From positions 1,073 through 65,072 of IMG/VR virus record IMGVR_UViG_3300025759_000088: a DNA stretch of 64,000 bases; one strand, given 5' to 3'. Below, piece after piece: positions 877-62,157 of the stretch (positions are counted from its first letter, which is position 1; every line of letters begins with the position of its first letter). Source of the DNA: a virus. Taxonomy: Duplodnaviria; Caudoviricetes. The notes under the pieces are model-generated. The model was not told the origin of the DNA, did no database searches, and saw only the letters and a list, made by a program, of their open reading frames with translations. The position numbers were made by a program, and so were the translations under genes.

Positions 877-1544
877 CAATTTACTCGTAAATACTGATAC
901 TGAGGCGTCACGTTAAATGAAGATCTATCCCGATCCTCTGTACGCGCTCTCTCAAACTCCTCTTCATAGACCGCTTTTAAAAGTTGAACGCGTTCAGGAG
1001 CTTTCTTCATTGAAATGTAGTACGCCAGCCCCGCGGCCAAACAAGGGTAAAACCGAAAAGGAACTTCTATTGTGTTTGTATAGACATCCGCATCATCCAT
1101 CCGCACAAGGGCATCGTAAATTATCGTGTCGGTGGCATTCTCAGGAGTGGGGTACAGTTTCAAAGACGGTGTAATTTGCCGATCTAAAAAAAATTGGCTT
1201 GGACGCCCCTGAGTGGTTTTTGAGGGGATGACTATGTACCCATCTCTACTGAGGCGCTGCATAGACAAATCAGAATTGCTTCTGCTGCACACCGCCGACA
1301 ATATGTCGATCACATCCGTGCCAAGATTGTACGCGCTAGTGCCTTGAGACAGGGTCAACGTCCTCTGCGCGATTGTCCATTGGTTCAAGCCACGGTTAGC
1401 CCAATCCGCAAGAAGCAGATTGAGGGAACGTTTTGCGGTGCGGGCATCGTATCCCGTCCTGAACTCTAACCCACACCGCTCAAAAGCTTCTTCGATGTAT
1501 TCATCGACTTGAAGCTCAAAGTTTTTTGACCCCGAAGTAGCCAT
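876..1544 (-). CDS. Head-tail adaptor / tail tubular-like protein
   Basis: 222 aa with GRPSQF..LYPTP motif, inside the structural operon; homologue at 61489..62157. Confidence 0.6.
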   Translation of the reverse strand: MATSGSKNFELQVDEYIEEAFERCGLEFRTGYDARTAKRSLNLLLADWANRGLNQWTIAQRTLTLSQGTSAYNLGTDVIDILSAVCSRSNSDLSMQRLSRDGYIVIPSKTTQGRPSQFFLDRQITPSLKLYPTPENATDTIIYDALVRMDDADVYTNTIEVPFRFYPCLAAGLAYYISMKKAPERVQLLKAVYEEEFERARTEDRDRSSFNVTPQYQYLRVN

Positions 1545-18984: not shown

Positions 18985-19173
18985 GTCTTTAACTCCATTT
19001 TAAAAGGTTGTTTGGTTTTGCATAATATAGGGCTGCTATGTGGTGTCCCTGCAGCGGGCCCGGACTAGCACGGGGCGGGGGTGCGAACGTCAACCGAAAA
19101 GGGGCAAGGGATAAACAAAAAACGCAATTTGAAAATCCCGACCAAAACGATTTCGCCTAGTCAATTGGCAGAT

Positions 19174-19265: not shown

Positions 19266-20006
19266 CTATTCTTTCCCGATGTCCCCGGCTATGTGGTGCC
19301 GCAATATTGAACGGGGCGGCAAGTTGCGGGCAAAGTCTCGCAACTTTTCCCCGTCGGGCTTTGCCTGCGTCTGGCCCGGCATGCGCCGCCAGTGAATGGC
19401 AACGTTACCGGTGCCCGCATAACATCCGCCCTGCGTCTCGCTATCGCCTGCCCGGTTTTTGTCCGTCCCGTGCGCCGTAAATGCAATTATGTAATCGCGA
19501 TTTAAACGGGCGCATAACGGGCCGCCGCGCCCGCCGCAATCCGCGCATCCTCTTATTGCGCCGGTTTCTTCTGGGCAGCGCACAAATTGAACATGGTCAA
19601 TTGTCCGGTTTTTTTGCGACTCTTGCCAAAACGTCGGGGGCACTACGGTCACCATAGGAAATTGCCATTGATCCGGCGGGGCTTTCCGCATTGCATTTTT
19701 TAAAAACGCGGCTGTCTCCGGGTTGGCGGTGCTGTAATTAACAACGGTTTTAATCGGGCTTAATTTGTGGGCCCAGTGCATGGGGCTAAAATGGGTATAT
19801 GTGAAACTGTAACCCGCCCGCGGCTTGCTATCTAAAACAGCATCCAAATAATCATGGTCAATCTGCCCCGCGCCGCATCCCTTGCCTGACGGATTCAGTT
19901 CGCAATCCGCCGGGCACGTGCCAAACATGTTTTTATTACCGCTGCGATATGTGACGGCGCATCCTTTCAGTTTCTTGGCGGTGCTGATTTCAACTGTCTT
20001 TAACAT
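19266..20006 (-). CDS. Cys-rich early protein (GP88-like, possible Fe-S/metal binding)
   Basis: TCPADC, CPE..CADC..LC, GGCYA and LRHHIAGD motifs. Confidence 0.45.
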   Translation of the reverse strand: MLKTVEISTAKKLKGCAVTYRSGNKNMFGTCPADCELNPSGKGCGAGQIDHDYLDAVLDSKPRAGYSFTYTHFSPMHWAHKLSPIKTVVNYSTANPETAAFLKNAMRKAPPDQWQFPMVTVVPPTFWQESQKNRTIDHVQFVRCPEETGAIRGCADCGGRGGPLCARLNRDYIIAFTAHGTDKNRAGDSETQGGCYAGTGNVAIHWRRMPGQTQAKPDGEKLRDFARNLPPRSILRHHIAGDIGKE

Positions 20007-20024
20007 TTTTAAAATCTCCTGTTG

Positions 20025-20067
20025 TCTAGGACTAATCCCATATTAGAGCGCAAAATAAAAAAGGCAA
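20025..20067 (-). promoter_or_regulatory. sigma70-type promoter with overlapping operator
   Basis: Minus strand TTGCCT-16-TAATAT; operator TATGGGA-TTAG-TCCTAGA at 20025-20042. Confidence 0.6.
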
Positions 20068-20199
20068 GCGCTAGCCTGCCTTTTGTTTTTATTTTTTCCG
20101 CCGTCGTTTTGTGGGCTCAATGCTATATCGGCTTTTTATTTTGTCCGGGTCTGGCGATCCCCAAAACAGCCAATAATAAAGGCGCGACAATATCCACAT

Positions 20200-20625
20200 T
20201 TAATAATTACCCGCGGCGCAAACTTCCATGTCAAGCTTGCCAGAATACCGGCGGCGTCCATCGCCCTTTATTATTTGCTCTGCGCGGCGGCTTGCAGCTT
20301 CTAAACTGACGTCACGGACGGCAAAATCAAAATCCCGCATGTTACCGCTTGTTGTGCAATAGCTGCCATTTGCCCAGAATAATTTCACGTCCGGCGTCGG
20401 GCTATCAGATATTCTTTCAACCACAACGTCCCCGTCTTGATCTCTTTTTATTCCGACAAGAACGTTAACCGGTTCAGCCTCTCTTGCCTGCAGCATGACA
20501 TCCACACTGTCCCACCATTTTTTTTCTGCAGCCTTTTCCATATTTGCAAGCGACAGATACTCATCAAAGTACATGTCAAACTCAAACGTGCGTATTTCAC
20601 GAACGCGAAAGGTAGCTTTCTTCAT
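20200..20625 (-). CDS. Hypothetical early protein
   Basis: GGGAGA RBS and its own promoter/operator. Confidence 0.65.
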   Translation of the reverse strand: MKKATFRVREIRTFEFDMYFDEYLSLANMEKAAEKKWWDSVDVMLQAREAEPVNVLVGIKRDQDGDVVVERISDSPTPDVKLFWANGSYCTTSGNMRDFDFAVRDVSLEAASRRAEQIIKGDGRRRYSGKLDMEVCAAGNY

Positions 20626-20651
20626 TTCGTTTATCTCCCGTTGTTGGTGCG

Positions 20652-20682
20652 TATAAGATAGTTCTTACACCGGGATTGTCAA
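20652..20682 (-). promoter_or_regulatory. Promoter with operator
   Basis: TTGACA-16-TATCTT on minus; TATAAGA-TAGT-TCTTACA at 20652-20669. Confidence 0.6.
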
Positions 20683-21099
20683 ACGGAAAAACTGCTCCCA
20701 ATCAATCGGGGCATCTATTTTAAAATGCGGTTTTAAAAGAAGCCCGCGGTCAACAAGCTCAACCGCCTGATCCGCACGATACACGTGGGCGTGTCGATCC
20801 TTGCAGCGCACAATGACAAACGATGCGGTGTGCTTGTGCTGCTCCATCCATGCAACCTGATGAGGCGATAGCCGAACAGCAACGCCGGTTGCCGTTTTTA
20901 ACTCCCAAAAAGAAAAGTCCCCTGTCTCGCCGCAAACGACAAGATCGGGGACGCCTTGAGATGCCCAGCTTTCTATTCGCGTCAGCCTGACGTCAGGCCG
21001 GTGCTTCTTCTGGTTCTTCTTTATACTCTGGTAGAAGCTCGCTTCCAGATTCTTCGGCGTCTTTTTCGACGGGCGTGATATCGATAACGGAAGATCCAT
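20665..21099 (-). CDS. PD-(D/E)XK nuclease (VRR-NUC/resolvase-like)
   Basis: E..F, GVPDL, WELK and LSPHQVAW motifs. Confidence 0.75.
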   Translation of the reverse strand: MDLPLSISRPSKKTPKNLEASFYQSIKKNQKKHRPDVRLTRIESWASQGVPDLVVCGETGDFSFWELKTATGVAVRLSPHQVAWMEQHKHTASFVIVRCKDRHAHVYRADQAVELVDRGLLLKPHFKIDAPIDWEQFFRLTIPV

Positions 21100-21568
21100 A
21101 TTGCTTTTTAATCTCTTCTAGTTCTTTCATCACTTCATCACGGCTCATGCTGTCAATAGAACCGTGCCGCACTTCAGATTTGCTGATGTAGATATCCCCG
21201 TGCGCCTGCCCCCGGCGGTACTCCGCCTGCACGGCGGCTGAATATGCTCCATTGTCCAAAGCTTCATCACGTATGCGCTGCAGGTCACGGACATGACGAT
21301 GGTAAGTGATTGCATACCGCTCGTTCAGTTCGTCCCGATACATCTTGATCGCCTTGGCAACATTCGGGTGCTTGTGGGGGTTCAAAAGTTCAGAAGCTTT
21401 GACCGACGCACTCTTTTCAGAGAAGCCCGCGTTTAAAGCGCATTGCTTCTTACTAATCATGCCGTCGTTGGAAACGTATTCCTTAACGAATTTCTTTTGC
21501 TTTTCAGAGAGCGGGGAGTCCGGTGTCAGCCGCGGACGACCAACAGGGTTTACTTTTACGATTTCCAT
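20993..21568 (-). CDS. terS: Terminase small subunit
   Basis: LSEKQKKFVKEY..CALNAGFSEKSA..ASELL HTH typical of TerS. Confidence 0.75.
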   Translation of the reverse strand: MEIVKVNPVGRPRLTPDSPLSEKQKKFVKEYVSNDGMISKKQCALNAGFSEKSASVKASELLNPHKHPNVAKAIKMYRDELNERYAITYHRHVRDLQRIRDEALDNGAYSAAVQAEYRRGQAHGDIYISKSEVRHGSIDSMSRDEVMKELEEIKKQYGSSVIDITPVEKDAEESGSELLPEYKEEPEEAPA

Positions 21569-21629
21569 GACGTGCCCTTATGTTTGAAATCATTCCAAAT
21601 ATAAGGGTAAGTGCGGGTTTAAAACAAGG

Positions 21630-21853
21630 TGTTACACCTCTAATTTCGCGTTACACAAAAAAGTAACGATATTTGCCTTCTTTATGTAAGGATTTCAACG
21701 ATGTTACACTTTTCACATTTGTCACAGCACTGTGGGAAGAAAAAAAATTATTTTTTTTTCTAGCCCTATAGAAAAGTTTTGGATTTTAGAACCCTTTGTC
21801 ACCTTGGGTTTGAGCGTTACATATTTGGTTTTTCAAAAGTGTAACAAAGTAAC
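21630..21853. repeat. Cluster of GTTAC(AC)/GTAAC repeats (iteron-like)
   Basis: GTTACAC at 21631, 21650, 21703; GTTACAT at 21816; GTAAC at 21663, 21841, 21849; TGTCAC variants; AT-rich non-coding region. Confidence 0.65.
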
Positions 21854-21918
21854 GCCCCGCCCTAAGAAAGGACGAGGCGCTACAAACCAAAACAACACGG
21901 AGAAAGAACACAACCGTT
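21843..21918 (-). ncRNA. Putative antisense sRNA against early-gene ribosome-binding leaders
   Basis: Promoter TTGACG(21952-21947)-17-TACGGT; GU-rich body; 11-bp hairpin fully paired only in minus orientation (G-U pairs), then a U-rich tail. Confidence 0.6.
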
Positions 21919-21955
21919 AATGAACCGTAGGCCGCGTTCTCTGCCCCGTCAAGCG

Positions 21956-22180
21956 TTATTCGTCATTCCTTGCAACTTTTAGTGTTGCGGATGCTTCGAC
22001 GATGTTTGGTATTCTCATTCTGGCTTTTATCATCAGGGACTGTGCTTCGTGCAGCTTGCTGATTGCTTCGTCGAGGAAGGGCTTTTCGCCCGGCAGCGCT
22101 TCCAGCCACAGGTCATTGACGGCGTGGATAGCTTGATTAAGCAGTGCGGCTGCTTCTTGGTGTTCATTGACACTATTCAT
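21956..22180 (-). CDS. Hypothetical protein
   Basis: ATGA overlap with the upstream gene; start moved to MNSVNEH. Confidence 0.55.
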   Translation of the reverse strand: MNSVNEHQEAAALLNQAIHAVNDLWLEALPGEKPFLDEAISKLHEAQSLMIKARMRIPNIVEASATLKVARNDE

Positions 22181-22368
22181 TCCCAATATACTCCCAGTGT
22201 TTCGACGCGGATGCACACCGCTTCTTCATTTACGGGCATATCTTCCCAGAACATTTTTGTTGCTGCGACGTGGCATTGTGCAATGGTGTCGAAGACTCCT
22301 ACGTTTTTCACGATGAACTCTTCAACACCTACCGCGGTGATCCACAGCAACACCCAGTTAACCGTCAT
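22177..22368 (-). CDS. Small hypothetical protein
   Basis: Hydrophobic N-terminus with a C...C pattern; start moved to MTVNW. Confidence 0.55.
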   Translation of the reverse strand: MTVNWVLLWITAVGVEEFIVKNVGVFDTIAQCHVAATKMFWEDMPVNEEAVCIRVETLGVYWE

Positions 22369-22657
22369 TTTTCTTTGGGCGTCCGCGTTTCTTGGGCGCG
22401 GGCTTGTTTTCTTCTGCCAGCACCCAATTTCCAAAGCCGTTCCATTCGGTATTTTCTGGCCGTTGGAATTGAAGCGTTTGCTGCATCCGGTGCATCAGCG
22501 TTTCCAGATTACGCAAATCGGAAATCCAGAGATCGTTGCATTCCCAGATGGTTTGCAGCGCTGTCCGCAGTTCGTTGTGCGAGTCGAGCAGTTTCCGGCG
22601 GGCGGCTGCGTCGATGGTCAAGTCCCCGGTTGTGGGGCTCACGTGGCTTTTATTCAT
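22358..22657 (-). CDS. Hypothetical protein with basic KKRGRPKK tail
   Basis: AGGAGAG RBS before the ATG at 22657. Confidence 0.6.
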   Translation of the reverse strand: MNKSHVSPTTGDLTIDAAARRKLLDSHNELRTALQTIWECNDLWISDLRNLETLMHRMQQTLQFQRPENTEWNGFGNWVLAEENKPAPKKRGRPKKNDG

Positions 22658-22685
22658 TGGTGTCTCTCCTGTTGTTGACCCGGTT

Positions 22686-22713
22686 ATTATGGGAACCGTC
22701 CCATACAAGTCAA
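22686..22713 (-). promoter_or_regulatory. Leftward early promoter with perfect palindromic operator
   Basis: TTGACT-16-CATAAT on minus; TATGGGA-ACCG-TCCCATA at 22688-22705. Confidence 0.75.
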
Positions 22714-22851
22714 GCAAAAAAATGCAGATGTTTTTGTATTTGCTTGTTAACCATATTCTGGTTGACTGCACATTAGAATCATTTCAAGTTAACCACATTT
22801 CAGTTTAACTAATTGATTTCATTAATAAAAAAGGTGCGACACTATGTCACA

Positions 22852-22880
22852 TGGACTGTATGGGAGTTATCCTTTAAGAT
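22852..22880 (+). promoter_or_regulatory. Rightward early promoter with operator in the spacer
   Basis: TGGACT-17-TAAGAT; TATGGGA-GTTA-TCCTTTA at 22859-22876. Confidence 0.7.
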
Positions 22881-22924
22881 AGAATGTTAGCTCGAAATAG
22901 GGCTATGGGCTTTCGGGCCCGGAA

Positions 22925-22940
22925 TGTTTCACGTGAAACA
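22925..22940. promoter_or_regulatory. parS: parS centromere-like site
   Basis: Exact TGTTTCACGTGAAACA inside a 22-bp palindrome (22922-22943). Confidence 0.8.
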
Positions 22941-22984
22941 TTCGCTATTTGAAATCGTAAACCAAACAACCAACGGAGGTCAGT

Positions 22985-23293
22985 ATGTCTGACGCCAAAC
23001 CGTCTTTCCTTGCCATCATCTTTATTGGGTGCGGAAGCTCTTGGGCCTACGGCTCATCGGCTGACGAAGCCGCCACCAGTGCAGCGAGCATTCTTGTTCG
23101 TGACTGGAGCAGCTTGTACACCTTTAAAGAAGAGGTGCCGGTCAACATCTTCGATGTCGAAGATTACGACGGGTTCCACGCCACCCATCAGGGTGTGTTC
23201 GGAACCAAGGATGATATCCCCGACGACGAAGGGGTAGCGTTGGAGTGCCTTGAAACGAGGCACGTGCCGACGCCCCCGCAGCCGCGGAGATAA
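22985..23293 (+). CDS. Hypothetical early protein
   Basis: GGAGG RBS; first gene after the rightward promoter. Confidence 0.7.
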   Translation: MSDAKPSFLAIIFIGCGSSWAYGSSADEAATSAASILVRDWSSLYTFKEEVPVNIFDVEDYDGFHATHQGVFGTKDDIPDDEGVALECLETRHVPTPPQPRR

Positions 23294-23355
23294 GACCTAC
23301 GCCCCCCTACCTACGGTAGGGGGGTAGACCTCCCAGCCACCAAAGGAGAAAGTAA

Positions 23356-23655
23356 ATGGCTGAATTAAACGACACTGAGTTGAACGTAATGTGGGAAGCT
23401 TTAAACACTGTCTACTTCACAGACGAGAAGGGGATAGATGCCCACCGCAAGCTTTTGATGAAATACCGGCGGCAGGTTGCAAAGCAGCTTCACGGCGGTG
23501 CCATCAACGCGGCGGATGTCGAGTGTGGTACGCTTGAACATTACAACGAGCTTCGTGCCAAACGAAAGAAGGCTGTAGCCGACTCTGCTATGCAGAAGAT
23601 AAAAGAACAAGCGGAGTTAGACCATCTTCAAAAGACATTGGGGAAGATAGGCTGA
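23356..23655 (+). CDS. Hypothetical protein
   Basis: AAGGAG RBS. Confidence 0.7.
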   Translation: MAELNDTELNVMWEALNTVYFTDEKGIDAHRKLLMKYRRQVAKQLHGGAINAADVECGTLEHYNELRAKRKKAVADSAMQKIKEQAELDHLQKTLGKIG

Positions 23656-23930
23656 TGGCGCTTGATCTTGAAATTCATCTTTCGCAGTACGATCACAACG
23701 GCGCAGATTTCATCTGCCGGATAACCGGCAGAAGATTTGAGCTTGGCAATGAACCGGGGCTCTACGGCGGCGTGGTCTTCTATGAGGACGACGTCGATAG
23801 CCCCATCATGCGCTTTGGCCGCAACTACAAATCAAAACGTAGTACGCGGATTGCAAAGATACTTGAATGGTTTGAGGACCGTGAGGAGTTTCACGGGGGC
23901 CTTGTGGCAGTAAAGGTGAATAAAAAATAA
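23655..23930 (+). CDS. Hypothetical protein
   Basis: TGATG coupling to the upstream gene; ends at a terminator. Confidence 0.65.
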   Translation: MALDLEIHLSQYDHNGADFICRITGRRFELGNEPGLYGGVVFYEDDVDSPIMRFGRNYKSKRSTRIAKILEWFEDREEFHGGLVAVKVNKK

Positions 23931-23933
23931 AGG

Positions 23934-23960
23934 AAGGGCGGTCAATGACCGCCCTTTTTT
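23934..23960. terminator. Terminator between convergent genes
   Basis: AAGGGCGGTCA/TGACCGCCCTT hairpin plus T tract. Confidence 0.8.
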
Positions 23961-24243
23961 AATGCCGTGTTCCGTGGTCTAGGGTGTTTTGTGCGATTTC
24001 TTTTGCCATGCCTATCAGTTCATCGACATCGTTTTCATCGCGGCAGGCTTGCATTGCGTACTGCATCAGTGCGGTCATCACGCCCAGAATGACGATTGGT
24101 TCGTGTTCCGCGGCCTGTGCATCGACGTGCTTGCTTATTAAGTCGAGGGCATCGATACCCATTTCGTGACCAAGGCTGAAGTCCCCGCCGTTGGGATCCA
24201 GTTCTACTTCTTCTGCTTCATCAAACATGTTGGCAGTCTCCAC
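23959..24243 (-). CDS. Acidic hypothetical protein
   Basis: ORF behind a leftward promoter; start uncertain. Confidence 0.55.
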   Translation of the reverse strand: METANMFDEAEEVELDPNGGDFSLGHEMGIDALDLISKHVDAQAAEHEPIVILGVMTALMQYAMQACRDENDVDELIGMAKEIAQNTLDHGTRH

Positions 24244-24254
24244 TGTTCCAAACC

Positions 24255-24322
24255 GTTATATGGGATTATTCTTAGAATCGTCAAGGAAAAAGGTTGACGG
24301 CGTATGGGATGGCTCCTATCTT
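24255..24322. promoter_or_regulatory. Back-to-back divergent promoters, each with an operator
   Basis: Plus: TTGACG-17-TATCTT with TATGGGA-TGGC-TCCTATC (24303-24320); minus: TTGACG with TATGGGA-TTAT-TCTTAGA (24259-24276). Confidence 0.7.
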
Positions 24323-24357
24323 TAAAAGGTCAACAACGACAAACAAAAGAGAGAAAA

Positions 24358-25236
24358 ATGCAGATCATCAAAACACAGTCTGAAAAAGAGACAGAAATCA
24401 AGAACTTGGAGAAGTTTCTCCGCAAGTCCCCGACGAACAGCGTGGTGATGGAGTTCACACCATCGTTAGCAGAGTACATTTTGTCTAAGCTTAATATCGG
24501 CAATCGTCCTCAGAAGCCGCAGCGTATTGTAGATTACGCTAAAGACATGGCTTCGCACAACTGGTCATTGACCGGCGAGACAATCTGCTTCGGCGACAAC
24601 GGGCGTCTTTTAGATGGTCAGAACCGGTTAGCTGCTTGCATCCGGGCTCAGACATCATTTAAGACACATGTCATTTTTGGCATTGATCCTGCAACGTTCC
24701 ATCACATGGACACAGGAAAAAATCGTGGCGGGGACGATATTCTCGCAATCATGGGTGTACCAAACTCCGGTAAGGTAGCTGGTGCATTGAAGATGATACG
24801 GGCTTGGAAGCGCGGTGTAACGAACACGCAGGGCACTGTATCGAACCAGATCATTAAGGACATGTACCTTAATGAGATTGACGAAGAGCTTATGCAGCGG
24901 GCGATCAAGTCAGCTAAGAACGTTTACAACGTAATCAGCTACCCGATTGGTCAGACAGCTTCGCTGTACTATCTTGCCAGCTTGAACGGCGACGAAGAGC
25001 TTGTAGATAAGTTTTTTGCGGAGCTTCGCGTCGGCGGTTCGGGGACAAGCAAGTATCAGCCGTCCCGGCATCTTGTCGAAACATTGACGCGTATGAAGAT
25101 GAACCGTGAACGGCGGATCACGTCACATGACTATAGTGTGATGCTCACGCGGTCTTGGTACAATTTCAAGCACAAGAAGCGGAGCAAGAAGGCCGACATG
25201 GAAGTGTACCTTGACGACAAGCTGATGGAAATCTAG
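24358..25236 (+). CDS. ParB/Srx-like N-terminal domain protein
   Basis: NRP..RIVDYAKDM..W...GETI.F...GRLLDGQNRL motif. Confidence 0.65.
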   Translation: MQIIKTQSEKETEIKNLEKFLRKSPTNSVVMEFTPSLAEYILSKLNIGNRPQKPQRIVDYAKDMASHNWSLTGETICFGDNGRLLDGQNRLAACIRAQTSFKTHVIFGIDPATFHHMDTGKNRGGDDILAIMGVPNSGKVAGALKMIRAWKRGVTNTQGTVSNQIIKDMYLNEIDEELMQRAIKSAKNVYNVISYPIGQTASLYYLASLNGDEELVDKFFAELRVGGSGTSKYQPSRHLVETLTRMKMNRERRITSHDYSVMLTRSWYNFKHKKRSKKADMEVYLDDKLMEI

Positions 25237-25731: not shown

Positions 25732-25782
25732 GGTTTTCTCCCGTTGTTAAACAATAACGATATGTAGAAAAAACCAGAAGTT

Positions 25783-58454: not shown

Positions 58455-59231
58455 TTACCCCAGTGCTATCGCCATGACTACGCTTTGCCCAGCGGATTCA
58501 AAGTCGGTTGTGTTAGATGTGGCTGCGCTACCTAACCCCAGTGATGTTCTGGCTGTTGCGCCGCTCTCAGCTACAAAATTAGACCCATCACCCACAATAA
58601 AGTTACCGTTTGTAACCGCCAGCCCCGCCACGTCTTGTAGCTGTGCGTCCAACCTAGCGTTAGCCACTGTCCCGCTAGAAAGGTTGCTGGCGTTCAATGC
58701 CGTCAGATTACTACCATTCGCCGCCGGTAGTGTCGCGGGGAACCGCGCATCTGGAACTGTACCGGAGCCAAGATTGCTGGCGTTCAACGCAGTGAGGTTT
58801 ACACCACTAGCCGCTGGCAGCGTTGCGGGAAACCTAGCATCTGGGACCGTGCCAGAAGCAAGGTTGCTGGCATTGAGTGCAGTTAGGTTGCTACCGTTAG
58901 CCGCCACCACATTTCCAGAGGCATCAAGGAAAGACATCTTCTCCGCTGGCAACGTGCAGAAAATCGTCCTTGTACCGGAACTCCAGTTCACAGCAGCATC
59001 ACTGTTGCTCGACTGAAGCACCGTAGTTCTGGCTAGTGTGGTGCCTGACGCAGTGTAGGTTCCAATGCCGACCTCAAAGTCGGTTCCGTCAGAACAAGCG
59101 TAATATGTCGTGTTCCCATCGCCCACGCTGCCGAAAGTCTCAAAACCAGAAACAGCGCCTGCAAGCGTGTACGTTGCAGTGCCGGTGGTTGTGGTCGTTT
59201 CTTTTACGCGATCTCTGAGAACAAGTGCCAT
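58455..59231 (-). CDS. Tail fibre base protein with 29-aa internal repeats
   Basis: DRVKETTTTTGT start; NLTALNASNL.SGTV three times; ends MAIALG. Confidence 0.7.
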   Translation of the reverse strand: MALVLRDRVKETTTTTGTATYTLAGAVSGFETFGSVGDGNTTYYACSDGTDFEVGIGTYTASGTTLARTTVLQSSNSDAAVNWSSGTRTIFCTLPAEKMSFLDASGNVVAANGSNLTALNASNLASGTVPDARFPATLPAASGVNLTALNASNLGSGTVPDARFPATLPAANGSNLTALNASNLSSGTVANARLDAQLQDVAGLAVTNGNFIVGDGSNFVAESGATARTSLGLGSAATSNTTDFESAGQSVVMAIALG

Positions 59232-59673: not shown

Positions 59674-60321
59674 TTATGTACGAGGCCGATCTGGCAGACC
59701 TCTGCGATACGCATCGCTGTTTTCTCTAGCTTCCGCCAGATCTTTAATCCTGGTCATTGCCTCGGTGAACTGTTTCTCATACATCTGAAGCATGTCCTGC
59801 TCACCTTTCATGTATATATACGCTTCAACCAAAGAACCGTAAAGCAGGGCGTTGGGAGCGTTGTCGCTCAACCACGTGGTTCCACTATCACTGCCAGCGG
59901 TCAGAGATGCCGGCCTGTAATAGTAGTGAAGCTCAACAGCGTAGTTGCTGTCAGGGGTTGGCGCCATAATGAAGTTATCTTTATCAAAAAACGCATAATA
60001 CTTTGGCGTTCCTGTCGTTGCCGGATTCGGATTGTATTCTTGGATGTAGTTCACATCTTTTTGAAGCAGGAACTCCTTCGAGCTACTGTTTGTGACAGAC
60101 AAAGAAAAAGATGAAAGATAGTCGCTCGGCACAGAAAGATACGGATCACCTTGTGTTAGCGCACTTGTCGCGTTCTTGCGAAAAATCTCAAGGTCAACCA
60201 GCTTGAAGATACGATCTTCGGCTGCGCGAATAAACACAGGTAGATTCGTCACGAAGGACGTTTCAGTGTTTTCGGTATAATCTTGGATGGCTGTTTTTAG
60301 CTGTGCGTATGTAAAAGCCAT
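59674..60321 (-). CDS. Adaptor-like virion protein
   Basis: GTPKYYA..APTPD..Y.VELHY..LLYGSLVEA. Confidence 0.6.
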   Translation of the reverse strand: MAFTYAQLKTAIQDYTENTETSFVTNLPVFIRAAEDRIFKLVDLEIFRKNATSALTQGDPYLSVPSDYLSSFSLSVTNSSSKEFLLQKDVNYIQEYNPNPATTGTPKYYAFFDKDNFIMAPTPDSNYAVELHYYYRPASLTAGSDSGTTWLSDNAPNALLYGSLVEAYIYMKGEQDMLQMYEKQFTEAMTRIKDLAEARENSDAYRRGLPDRPRT

Positions 60322-60743
60322 TAAGCGATCCTTACAATCGCGCTACTCGCGCCCGCTGTTGGAATGGTAATAGTAAAAGTAGATGAAGAAGAAGCTTGAT
60401 CGGCTCCAAAATCAAACACCGCAATCGCTTTGTCAGATGCACTGCTGTTATAAAGCAGTGCTCCTCGTGCCGTTATTGTAGAGTTAGCAAAACTAACGTC
60501 AGCAAAATCTATAAAAGCAGTTGTGCCGCTGGTGTTGATGGTTATGCTTGTGACGGTAGCACCGCCCGCGCTATAGCCTGTTCCGCTTACTTCGTTAGCT
60601 GTTGAGTATGCGGTTGTGGTCGCGTCGAGAGTGGCGCTGTTTGTGAACAGCGCCATCTTAAATGTGTGACTTGCAAAATTGTGGACGGCTTGAAGCAGTT
60701 CGCTTTTAAAAGACGTACACAGATAATTTCCAGTAAAAGCCAT
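60321..60743 (-). CDS. Virion structural protein
   Basis: CTSFK.ELL...H.F..FK.AL pattern. Confidence 0.65.
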   Translation of the reverse strand: MAFTGNYLCTSFKSELLQAVHNFASHTFKMALFTNSATLDATTTAYSTANEVSGTGYSAGGATVTSITINTSGTTAFIDFADVSFANSTITARGALLYNSSASDKAIAVFDFGADQASSSSTFTITIPTAGASSAIVRIA

Positions 60744-60751
60744 GTTTACTC

Positions 60752-61489
60752 CTATGGCGTGTTCGCTGTACCGCCCATGCCGCTGTGGTTTGTGCAGTAA
60801 TAATACAGAGTTGGAGTCCCCGAGGCTACCGTGATCTGTGTGTAAGCTCCCGAGCTACCCGGGGAACCGTTAGTAGATACACCTGTTGTATACTCGGAAC
60901 CCCCGGCGTGAGTGCCGTTGGCAGTTTCTGAAAACCGGAAGGGATGCCCCGAGTTGCTGTTGTCTGATTGATCGAACCTGTAGGTAGAACCCTCGCTTAA
61001 CGTAAGCGTCGGAGAAGCCCCCGACAAACCAGCAACATAATACTTATTGCCTGTTCCGTAAGAATTTGTTCCCGAAGCAACAGTAACTGTGTAGTTCGTA
61101 ACGATTCCAACTGAAACAGAATTTACGCCGCCAGTGGCGGAAACCCCGGTTATGGATACAGTAACAGTCCCTGATGGTGTTGTACCTGTTGTGACTACGT
61201 CTCCCACAAATCCATGCATGACTGCAACAGGAGACACTTCCAGCGTCCGTGAGTTAAACGTGGGAAATGTTATAGTGACTGAATGAATAATCGAGGGTGG
61301 TCGTGGATTGTGAAGAGCCTGCGGATCCGGCCCCACTCGAACGGGCTGTAGTTGAGGATGCTTCGTCTCATACTCATCAGGTCCGACTTTTAAACCATTC
61401 CACTCCGTAACCATTTCTCGAAGACGATACCGGAATCCGGATCTATCCGAATAGCCCCAGGCGTCTTTTCCTGAAGCGAACCGCGCCAT
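60752..61489 (-). CDS. Virion protein with cupredoxin-like domain (second homologue)
   Basis: Homologous to 76..876. Confidence 0.7.
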   Translation of the reverse strand: MARFASGKDAWGYSDRSGFRYRLREMVTEWNGLKVGPDEYETKHPQLQPVRVGPDPQALHNPRPPSIIHSVTITFPTFNSRTLEVSPVAVMHGFVGDVVTTGTTPSGTVTVSITGVSATGGVNSVSVGIVTNYTVTVASGTNSYGTGNKYYVAGLSGASPTLTLSEGSTYRFDQSDNSNSGHPFRFSETANGTHAGGSEYTTGVSTNGSPGSSGAYTQITVASGTPTLYYYCTNHSGMGGTANTP

Positions 61490-62157
61490 TAGTTCACCCT
61501 CAGATACTGAATGCTTGGCTGTAGCTTGAGAGCCACACGATCTTCATCTTCATCTGCGGCTCGTTGAAACTCTTCTTCGTAAACCACTTTCAAAAGCTGC
61601 ACACGTTCCGGCGCTTTCTTCATCGCAAGATAGTATGCAAGACCAGCGACCATACACGGCAGAAATCTAAACGGTGCATCCGTGGTGTTCACCAAAGCAT
61701 CAGCGTCTTGAATTCTTTGCACGTAATAATAAACTAAGCTGTCTGTCGAATTTTCAGGAGTCGGCCACAGTGTAACTTGTGGTGTTACTTGCCTGTTGTA
61801 GAAATACTGGCTGGGGCGTCCTGTCTGTGTTTTATTGGGCGTCGTCAAGTATTCGCTTCGAGACATGCGGTCAAGCTGGTAGTCCGTGCCGCTTCTTCGA
61901 ATCACAACCTCAAGTAGATCCGTGTACGCTGTGTCGAAGGTGTACGTAGCAGTTCCTGCGGTCAACGCCTGTGTTCCCTGCTGCACCGTCCACAGATTCA
62001 AGCCACGGTTAGCCCAGTCTGCAAACATAAGATTCAGAGACCTACGAGCCGTACGCGCATCATAACCGGTGCGAACCTCAAGACCGCACCGCTCATATGC
62101 TTCTTCGATAATCTCTGCTACATCGAGATCAAAATCTCTGGATCCGGAAGTTGCCAT
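61489..62157 (-). CDS. Head-tail adaptor / tail tubular-like protein (second homologue)
   Basis: Collinear 222-aa homologue of 876..1544. Confidence 0.65.
   Translation of the reverse strand: MATSGSRDFDLDVAEIIEEAYERCGLEVRTGYDARTARRSLNLMFADWANRGLNLWTVQQGTQALTAGTATYTFDTAYTDLLEVVIRRSGTDYQLDRMSRSEYLTTPNKTQTGRPSQYFYNRQVTPQVTLWPTPENSTDSLVYYYVQRIQDADALVNTTDAPFRFLPCMVAGLAYYLAMKKAPERVQLLKVVYEEEFQRAADEDEDRVALKLQPSIQYLRVN

Follow-up and report, generated by a model that had tools for sequence, protein, structure and literature searches.

Background

In phage lambda the PR'-6S RNA-tR' unit yields a short terminated transcript directly upstream of the late genes, the c4 RNA of phages P1 and P7 is cut from the same operon transcript as its target, and in Staphylococcus aureus the untranslated 3' region (3'UTR) of icaR mRNA reportedly pairs with the Shine-Dalgarno (SD) region of its own 5'UTR. 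These are among the arrangements with which we compare a minus-strand segment (positions 21843-21952) of a 64,000-nucleotide (nt) stretch of phage DNA, referred to below as the window (IMG/VR virus record IMGVR_UViG_3300025759_000088, Caudoviricetes, positions 1073 to 65072 of that record). This segment had been singled out, in what is called here the original prediction, as a trans-acting small RNA (sRNA) with its own promoter and terminator that would switch off translation of the whole early class of phage genes.

An interaction between the 3'UTR and the 5'UTR has been described for icaR (PMC3868564), silencing of CA- or ACA-rich enhancers adjoining the SD by a GU-rich seed for GcvB-type sRNAs (PMC3879156), and action on ant mRNA for the c4 antisense RNA (PMC12197685), each in the excerpt of the source used here. 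The excerpt of the last of these, a review of phage-derived sRNAs, names none directed at early leaders, as a class, of the phage that encodes it (PMC12197685).

A proposed 3'UTR and terminator module

The most economical reading of the segment, to which we give a probability of roughly one half, is that it is a 3'UTR and terminator module closing an accessory operon before the packaging module. This module carries a masked anti-leader, which is possibly functional. Its parts are the following.

21838-21848, minus strand: U-rich tail TTACTTTGTTA, from the terminator scan, invariant among the variants
21849-21883, minus strand: intrinsic-terminator-like hairpin of 15 pairs (nine G-C, two G-U) with a loop of 5 and the tail TTTGTTACAC
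21884-21908, minus strand: GU-rich stretch (the 'body', also called anti-leader), complementary to AAACCAAAACAACACGGAGAAAGAA
21897-21949, minus strand: hairpin 1 of the 3'UTR, 19 pairs including 5 G-U, in its consensus form in eight variants
21924-21952, minus strand: promoter-like TTGACG-17-TACGGT, 4 nt past the stop of gene C, a chance-level match

The hairpin at 21883-21849 begins 72 nt past the stop codon of gene C, on the same strand, and only for the minus strand does the terminator scan report it. Among eight variants of the stem, a sample made up solely of close variants, one of the 15 pairs is changed on both sides (C-G in six, U-A in two) and two are changed on one side, with none broken. 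With its G+C-rich stem, U-rich tract, orientation and this upkeep of the stem, it can credibly be read as an intrinsic terminator. That it is specific to one strand, as the original prediction held, is borne out by folding as well as by the scan, since a 121-nt RNA of the minus strand forms two hairpins at -54.9 kcal/mol (z -6.74, 0 of 200 shuffles as low) against -24.3 kcal/mol (z -0.43, 63 of 200 shuffles as low) for the plus strand.

Hairpin 1 has the '-35' and spacer of the promoter-like sequence as its purine-rich 5' arm and the anti-SD half of the body (GGUUGUGUUCUUUCUCCGU) as its 3' arm, and both the -10 and the start site presumed from it fall within the loop. For the anti-SD half, the unpaired probability in the 121-nt 3'UTR form is ~0, and RNAalifold finds a common hairpin pairing the body with the '-35' region in 8/8 variants, in which two pairs are altered on one side (G-U to A-U) and none on both. 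Variants of the L003/L004 type carry substitutions in the spacer and in the 5' part of the body that move the pairing into another register, GCGGAGA then facing UCUCCGU, and the body is still paired. Since hairpin 1 holds the anti-SD half, the anti-leader would be masked in the operon transcript. A transcript starting at ~21917 would keep the 3' arm alone and thus leave the anti-leader free; the 80-nt short form is predicted to fold at -30.4 kcal/mol (z -5.6) with the body unpaired.

The features from which the original prediction had assembled a stand-alone unit are all present, but their position inside an operon 3'UTR had been overlooked. The stop codon of gene C (TAA) occupies 21958-21956, the -35-like hexamer begins 4 nt further on and, because the flagged segment starts there, it is the 3'UTR of the operon A-B-C, three short, translationally coupled minus-strand genes (22657-21956). 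In the proposed mechanism, the minus-strand 3'UTR RNA would form the long but imperfect hairpin 1 (21949-21897) followed directly by the G+C-rich terminator and its U-rich tail (21883-21838). Its most likely job would be to stop transcription of the accessory operon by the host polymerase before the control region and terS, and it would probably also shield the 3' end of the operon mRNA. Gene order, structures, strand specificity, motif statistics and the limited conservation are observed here; termination, insulation and the dispensability of the anti-leader for both are what we infer. The operon and the gene that follows it are laid out as below (aa, amino acids; ORF, open reading frame).

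22686-22713, minus strand: operon promoter, sigma-70-like TTGACT-16-CATAAT, 10/12, from the promoter scan
22358-22657, minus strand: gene A, 99 aa, no Pfam family, its leader holding AACAACAGGAG at 22676-22666
22177-22368, minus strand: gene B, 63 aa, no Pfam family, its start overlapping the stop of gene A
21956-22180, minus strand: gene C, last of the operon, 74 aa from its ATG (86 aa in the ORF list), no Pfam family
20993-21568, minus strand: terS (phrog_51, E 1.6e-16), first gene of the packaging/structural module, 3' of the terminator

The -10 of the operon promoter sits 9 nt upstream of the CAACAAC leader of gene A. The start of gene C overlaps the stop of gene B, and its tblastn relatives start at residues 12-17. 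The hairpin is separated from terS by a gap of 280 nt, with terL and the portal gene further downstream.

A shared leader and its mirror image

The body owes its interest to a leader motif, AACAAC-N0-5-GGAG, which occurs six times on the two strands of the 65,072-nt genome. Four of these occurrences lie 7-10 nt upstream of start codons (22985, 25731, 22657 and 20625), and the other two lie within a late gene (52311-52298) and on the plus strand of the candidate itself (21891-21902). Besides that of gene A, the leaders concerned are these.

22965-22978, plus strand: leader motif of gene 22985 (AACAACCAACGGAG), after AAACCAAAC
25738-25748, minus strand: leader motif of gene 25731
20635-20645, minus strand: leader motif of gene 20625, 3' of TTGACA-16-TATCTT (20682-20655)
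19007-19019, minus strand: AAAACCAAACAAC in the leader of gene 18984

In the whole genome, no leader outside 17.4-26 kb carries AACAAC-N0-5-GGAG. The claim of the original prediction that the complement of the body resembles accessory leaders holds, the full motif preceding 22985, 25731, 22657 and 20625. The shared CAACAAC-GGAG leader is a solid observation, and variants of it precede different genes in relatives, which points to cassette-style exchange of accessory genes. The mirror-image copy of this leader in the 3'UTR is a genuine oddity.

Such a copy might be a relic of the plus strand. In this alternative the motif at 21884-21902 would be a decayed or orphaned promoter-leader cassette, or would serve as leader to a very short ORF on the plus strand (ATG at 21920, 20 codons), and the complementarity of the minus strand would be a by-product. 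The full motif does stand on the plus strand as it does in the four true leaders, AAACCAAA(A)CAAC is common to this strand and the leaders of 22985 and 18984, and variants of the L003, L004 and L006 types have 12 nt (AAACCAAACAAC) that recur unchanged in the leaders of 18984 and 22985. The region is mosaic, with a neighbouring block inverted relative to distant relatives, and variants have GTG in place of the ATG. However, the distance from GGAG to the ATG is 17 nt, the length of the ORF differs in L006 and L003 with several non-synonymous changes by our own reading, the variants do not conserve the sole promoter-like site of the plus strand (21796-21825), and plus-strand RNA is unstructured whereas the minus strand has G-U-dependent structure. 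We therefore reject the small ORF and hold a plus-strand relic to be very unlikely.

Two further features of the promoter-leader regions deserve mention. Extended similarity in opposite orientations (GTATGGGA..TCC.AT..GGTCAACAAC) links 22671-22706 with 24302-24337 and 20025-20043 with 24258-24276, which suggests repeated promoter-leader cassettes in a mosaic accessory region. At 22922-22943, immediately before the gene 22985 leader, there is a perfect palindrome of 22 nt (GAATGTTTCAC/GTGAAACATTC) that resembles an operator to which a dimeric regulator would bind in the divergent promoter region.

Complementarity to the accessory leaders

Complementarity between the candidate and leaders was measured over 78 gene starts, taken from ORF-based calls curated by hand rather than from an independent annotation, with 756 dinucleotide shuffles as duplex controls. 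The accessory set consists of 16 genes between 17.4 and 26 kb, terS excluded; it was chosen after the leaders had been seen and comprises the eight genes named in the original prediction and eight others, and the label 'early' is positional only. The start of gene B was taken as 22367 in the duplex-energy leader set and as 22368 in the cofold set.

The mean duplex energy of the 16 accessory leaders is -20.18, compared with -17.23 +/- 0.94 for the shuffles (1/756 as extreme), and that of the 62 other leaders is -16.47, compared with -16.48 +/- 0.46 (373/756 as extreme). The difference between the two sets (-3.71, shuffles -0.75 +/- 0.89) is matched by 0/756 shuffles, and six accessory leaders are found within the best 10, where shuffles place 2.53 +/- 1.19 (5/756 as extreme). 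The strongest pairings show no such excess, the best single energy being -26.7 for shuffles at -26.68 +/- 2.2 (335/756 as good) and the mean of the best ten -23.91 for shuffles at -22.97 +/- 1.01 (125/756 as extreme). By the cofold free-energy difference (ddG) of the short form, which takes the cost of unfolding into account, the leaders of 22657, 18984, 25731, 22985 and 20625 rank 1, 3, 4, 5 and 6 of 78, and the accessory set is enriched (Mann-Whitney p 0.0015). Complementarity to the accessory leaders is thus above shuffle expectation and specific to the accessory region, and the enrichment that the original prediction had anticipated is found. Its extension to the whole early class goes too far, in that strong partners make up ~6/16 of the accessory leaders, while 5/16 rank 33rd or lower of 78, with ranks reaching 74.

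Leader resemblance alone does not single out targets. In a genome-wide plain duplex scan of 13,008 windows, none of the eight leaders of the original prediction is among the best 45 matches, and the top places go to the complement of the locus itself, to the arm of its hairpin 1 and to G/C-rich sites scattered through coding sequence; such a scan is useless for calling targets, since a GU-rich RNA can form wobble pairs at many sites. The best non-self partner genome-wide, at 58521-58560 on the minus strand (-35.5 kcal/mol, 29 pairs, 8 G-U), lies ~100 nt downstream of a late gene start (58450) and is probably a chance match. In an 8-mer seed test the candidate window touches 4/16 accessory leaders and 0/62 others, but 130 windows far from leaders (~9 places) equal it and rest on TTTTAAAA or GTTGTTGA. 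These seed words are of low information, and 6- and 7-mer versions of the test are non-specific.

One possibility is that a 3'UTR-borne anti-leader acts without a promoter of its own, in cis or in trans. In the cis route its partner would be the leader at the 5' end of the mRNA that carries it, giving feedback on gene A, in the manner of icaR, while in the trans route a nuclease would cut hairpin 1 and free its 3' arm together with the terminator, which would then block the SDs of CAACAAC-GGAG leaders. In accord with this scenario, the leader of its own operon (22657) is the best of the 78 partners by duplex energy (-26.7) and by cofold ddG (-20.1), and the predicted duplexes include both the GGAG and the upstream CAACAAC, the one with gene A spanning CAACAAC and GGAGAG. 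In addition, the body is necessarily co-transcribed with gene C if the operon is expressed, enrichment is retained in the 3'UTR form (Mann-Whitney p 0.02), and in distant relatives, too, the last stop is separated from the terminator by an SD/anti-SD hairpin (GAUCUCC/GGAGAUC). However, the anti-SD half is paired in the 3'UTR form, in which the ddG to the five best motif-bearing leaders drops to -9 to -11.6, about half, the best energies are no better than those of shuffles, and the phylogenetic evidence given below (an indel in the body unmatched in the leaders, and absence of the element from the relative L039) is unfavourable. Overall, we consider action of a promoterless anti-leader unlikely.

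Conservation and relatives

Across IMG/VR and metagenome contigs, the intergenic region is 88-100% identical, with ~8 distinct 3'UTR sequences. Scanning metagenomes with a 20-mer from beside the hairpin returned 11 stretches, of which L056, L058 and L063 are unrelated chance matches and only L055 and L057 are new 3'UTR variants. In both of these, and in contig X17 from an RNA library, sequence identity with the window continues as far as 21960 but falls off inside gene C, so that the module would appear to travel with the terS side. The T-run of the body varies in length (UUUU or UUU), and this indel is not mirrored by changes in the leaders of the variants compared.

In L039, a more distant relative, the order from gene C to terS is kept, with gene C ~67% identical, and a terminator stands alone 8 nt past the stop, without a body; the element was found neither in L039 nor in L012-L021. 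In relatives at ~58% TerS identity, the architecture upstream of terS is common, with other genes upstream and no anti-leader. The element is restricted to genomes 88-100% identical in the region and absent from more distant relatives, which argues that it is young and lineage-restricted. As to conservation, one of the checks proposed with the original prediction, the outcome went against it, the seed being confined to these close sequences; the comparison of body variants with leader variants, in which the indel is unmatched, was uninformative on covariation.

In more distant relatives a homologue of gene C ends the operon and is followed by a different 3'UTR with the GAUCUCC/GGAGAUC hairpin, then by a terminator, a promoter and a CAAC(A/T)AC..GGGAGG leader before varying genes. 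The combination of this hairpin and a terminator, a conserved element of distant relatives, was seen at L036:1335-1462 and also in L032, L041 and L044-L046. The distant 3'UTR folds on both strands. A ~40-nt block of it shows homology, inverted, to the 'promoter' stretch of the L003 type (L003:3632-3672; 36/45 nt, z 8-11, 0/300 shuffles), in which no -35/-10 hexamers were recognized by eye in the distant relatives; the window's own, more diverged sequence shows no significant similarity to the inverted block (z 0.2-1.2).

Promoter-like hexamers and RNA libraries

The case for an independent transcript turns on the hexamers TTGACG (21952-21947) and TACGGT (21929-21924), 17 nt apart on the minus strand. 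The letters are as the original prediction gave them, but the match is no better than chance frequency: the site scores 5/6 and 3/6 (8/12) without a TG extension, and 91 sites equal to or better than it occur in 130,144 nt (both strands), which is about one per 1,430 nt. The promoter scan does not list it. In 13 aligned sequences, variable columns number 0/12 in the hexamers, 4/17 in the spacer, 48/280 in the rest of the intergenic region and 58/303 in terS.

It was proposed that an independent sRNA of ~70-80 nt starts from this site, ends at the hairpin and represses a class of genes in a GcvB-like manner. Consistent with this are the invariance of the hexamers on either side of a variable spacer, a start predicted from the -10 at the foot of the 3' arm, a short RNA whose body is predicted to be unpaired, the enrichment of accessory leaders among its targets and the drop in identity at 21960 in L055, L057 and X17. 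On the other hand, the promoter is at chance level, with a -10 of only 3/6 and no TG; hairpin 1 and the conserved inverted block also account for the invariance of the hexamers; some accessory leaders are poor partners; the element is confined to genomes 88-100% identical here; and Rfam gives 0 matches at gathering score in the whole window. We judge this reading distinctly unlikely, and the minus-strand element is, as a separate regulatory RNA, a doubtful candidate only.

The same arrangement (a promoter-like site, ~70 nt, a terminator, then terS and structural genes on one strand) would also suit a leader of the late operon like lambda PR'-6S-tR', in which a constitutive short terminated RNA would later be antiterminated into terS. 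The promoter scan lists no other minus-strand site between the hairpin and terS, in keeping with this idea. Nevertheless, the chance-level promoter counts here too, no antiterminator-like protein was found among the neighbours tested, and relatives with the same architecture upstream of terS lack the unit, all of which makes such a leader highly improbable.

Sequencing runs add contigs of ambiguous nature. At least half of the sampled words occur in 16 DNA runs, while parts of the sequence occur in four metatranscriptome runs from three studies, at 90-99% identity. When RNA-library contigs were aligned to 19500-24500, contig X17 covered 21641-21960 at a depth of 15.3, crossing the hairpin, and contig X19 covered 21899-22147 at a depth of 3.1, spanning the putative promoter and so linking the body to gene C. 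These contigs come without strand, ends or level, and they are no proof of transcription, DNA carry-over being possible.

Weighing the readings

Four observations sit uneasily with a simple 3'UTR and terminator module. First, given that neighbouring columns vary at ~20%, the invariance of the hexamers would arise by chance with a probability of about 0.07 by our own arithmetic. Second, complementarity to the accessory leaders is far beyond that of shuffles, and a plain terminator has no need of it. Third, the presumed start site coincides with the foot of the 3' arm, and an RNA driven by the promoter would therefore have its anti-leader free. Fourth, X17 spans the hairpin, which could mean read-through, the other strand or DNA.

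A bolder scenario is one in which the tail of an early operon keeps an antisense copy of the accessory leader, masked by an arm that mimics the leader, and in which a freed RNA of ~75 nt blocks the ribosome-binding sites of several unrelated accessory genes. Unmasking would come about by a transcription start within the loop of the hairpin or by cleavage of the hairpin; we regard this scenario, taken together with its mode of unmasking, as tentative and rather unlikely. If true, the ~75-nt RNA would be a self-timed translational shut-off that includes its own operon, just before expression of the packaging genes.

The phage is a member of an aquatic group that is abundant and uncultured. Should the anti-leader be functional, it would offer a compact example of post-transcriptional control in a phage of lytic type, which would regulate one class of its genes by way of the 5' leader they share, with an RNA masked until its release. 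If it is not, the locus is a caution that mirror copies beside terminators, in regions of mosaic promoter-leader cassettes, can mimic sRNAs.

Genome setting

The window covers nearly all of a one-contig, 65,072-nt phage-like genome with most genes on the minus strand. A search of a phage collection at the DNA level, in near and distant modes, gave no match. The named phages nearest by TerL (023Pt_psg01, Pelagibacter phages HTVC027P and HTVC023P, and DSL-LC04) are only 53-61% identical, the two Pelagibacter phages ~60%. In HTVC027P the early-expressed genes are all described as of unknown function in the excerpt of the source used here (PMC12753301). Landmarks outside the operon are as follows.

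17258-15801, minus strand: terL
12253-9848: portal
26-35 kb: DNA polymerase, helicases, primase

The surroundings of terS include an HNH-like ORF, several accessory genes of unknown function and terL. The HNH/endonuclease-like ORF (20665-21099; phrog_93, E 1.4e-9) shares ~100 nt with the 3' end of the terS ORF. It lies in the interval from terS to terL, which also contains ~4 kb of unknown genes having promoter-like sites of their own.

From the terminator to terS, the intergenic region 21569-21848 contains a TATAG motif and an A9/T8 tract in addition to GTTAC/GTAAC inverted repeats (e.g. CGTTAC-N8-GTAACG and GGTGTAACACC); in relatives at only ~58% TerS identity, TATATAG, long A tracts and GTAAC repeats are likewise found upstream of terS. 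The region may be a packaging site or a late-control region. A T7-like repeated TATAG promoter was considered and dropped, the only intergenic occurrence of the motif on the minus strand being at 21771. Elsewhere, the same four-gene minus-strand block is present twice, at 63-2616 of the genome (window -1009..1544) and at 59674-62157 of the window, with 60-85% amino-acid identity per gene; this is a diverged duplication and no terminal repeat.

Comparison with known systems

The closest likeness of the module is to a phage Rho-independent terminator at an early/late boundary, with which it shares a G+C-rich stem-loop and a U-rich tail just past a stop codon, in the same orientation, and a stem that is preserved here by compensatory change. 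It differs in being preceded by a long hairpin and by a 25-nt stretch mirroring a leader motif used elsewhere, and in its interrupted tail (TTACTTTGTT).

With the 6S unit of lambda it would have in common a short terminated unit upstream of late/packaging genes on the same strand, but here the promoter match does not exceed chance, there is overlap with an upstream operon's 3'UTR and no antiterminator is found among the neighbours tested. The c4 RNA, as described in the excerpt cited above, is likewise encoded by a phage and complementary to the ribosome-binding region in phage genes that lie elsewhere, although it serves one defined mRNA in an immunity circuit, whereas several unrelated accessory genes would be concerned here. 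The likeness to GcvB is one of multi-target logic, a GU-rich single strand (in the short form) facing CA-rich leaders upstream of GGAG; there is no sequence or Rfam relation, the pairing here includes the SD itself and the promoter is only putative.

Compared with icaR, the operon here is polycistronic and of phage origin, the stretch also matches the leaders of other transcripts and it is masked by a local hairpin, and the pairing is a predicted one. Despite these differences, the two have the same plan in outline, since an anti-SD stretch lies in a 3'UTR and, in the phage, the best of its 78 partners is the SD region of the same transcript.

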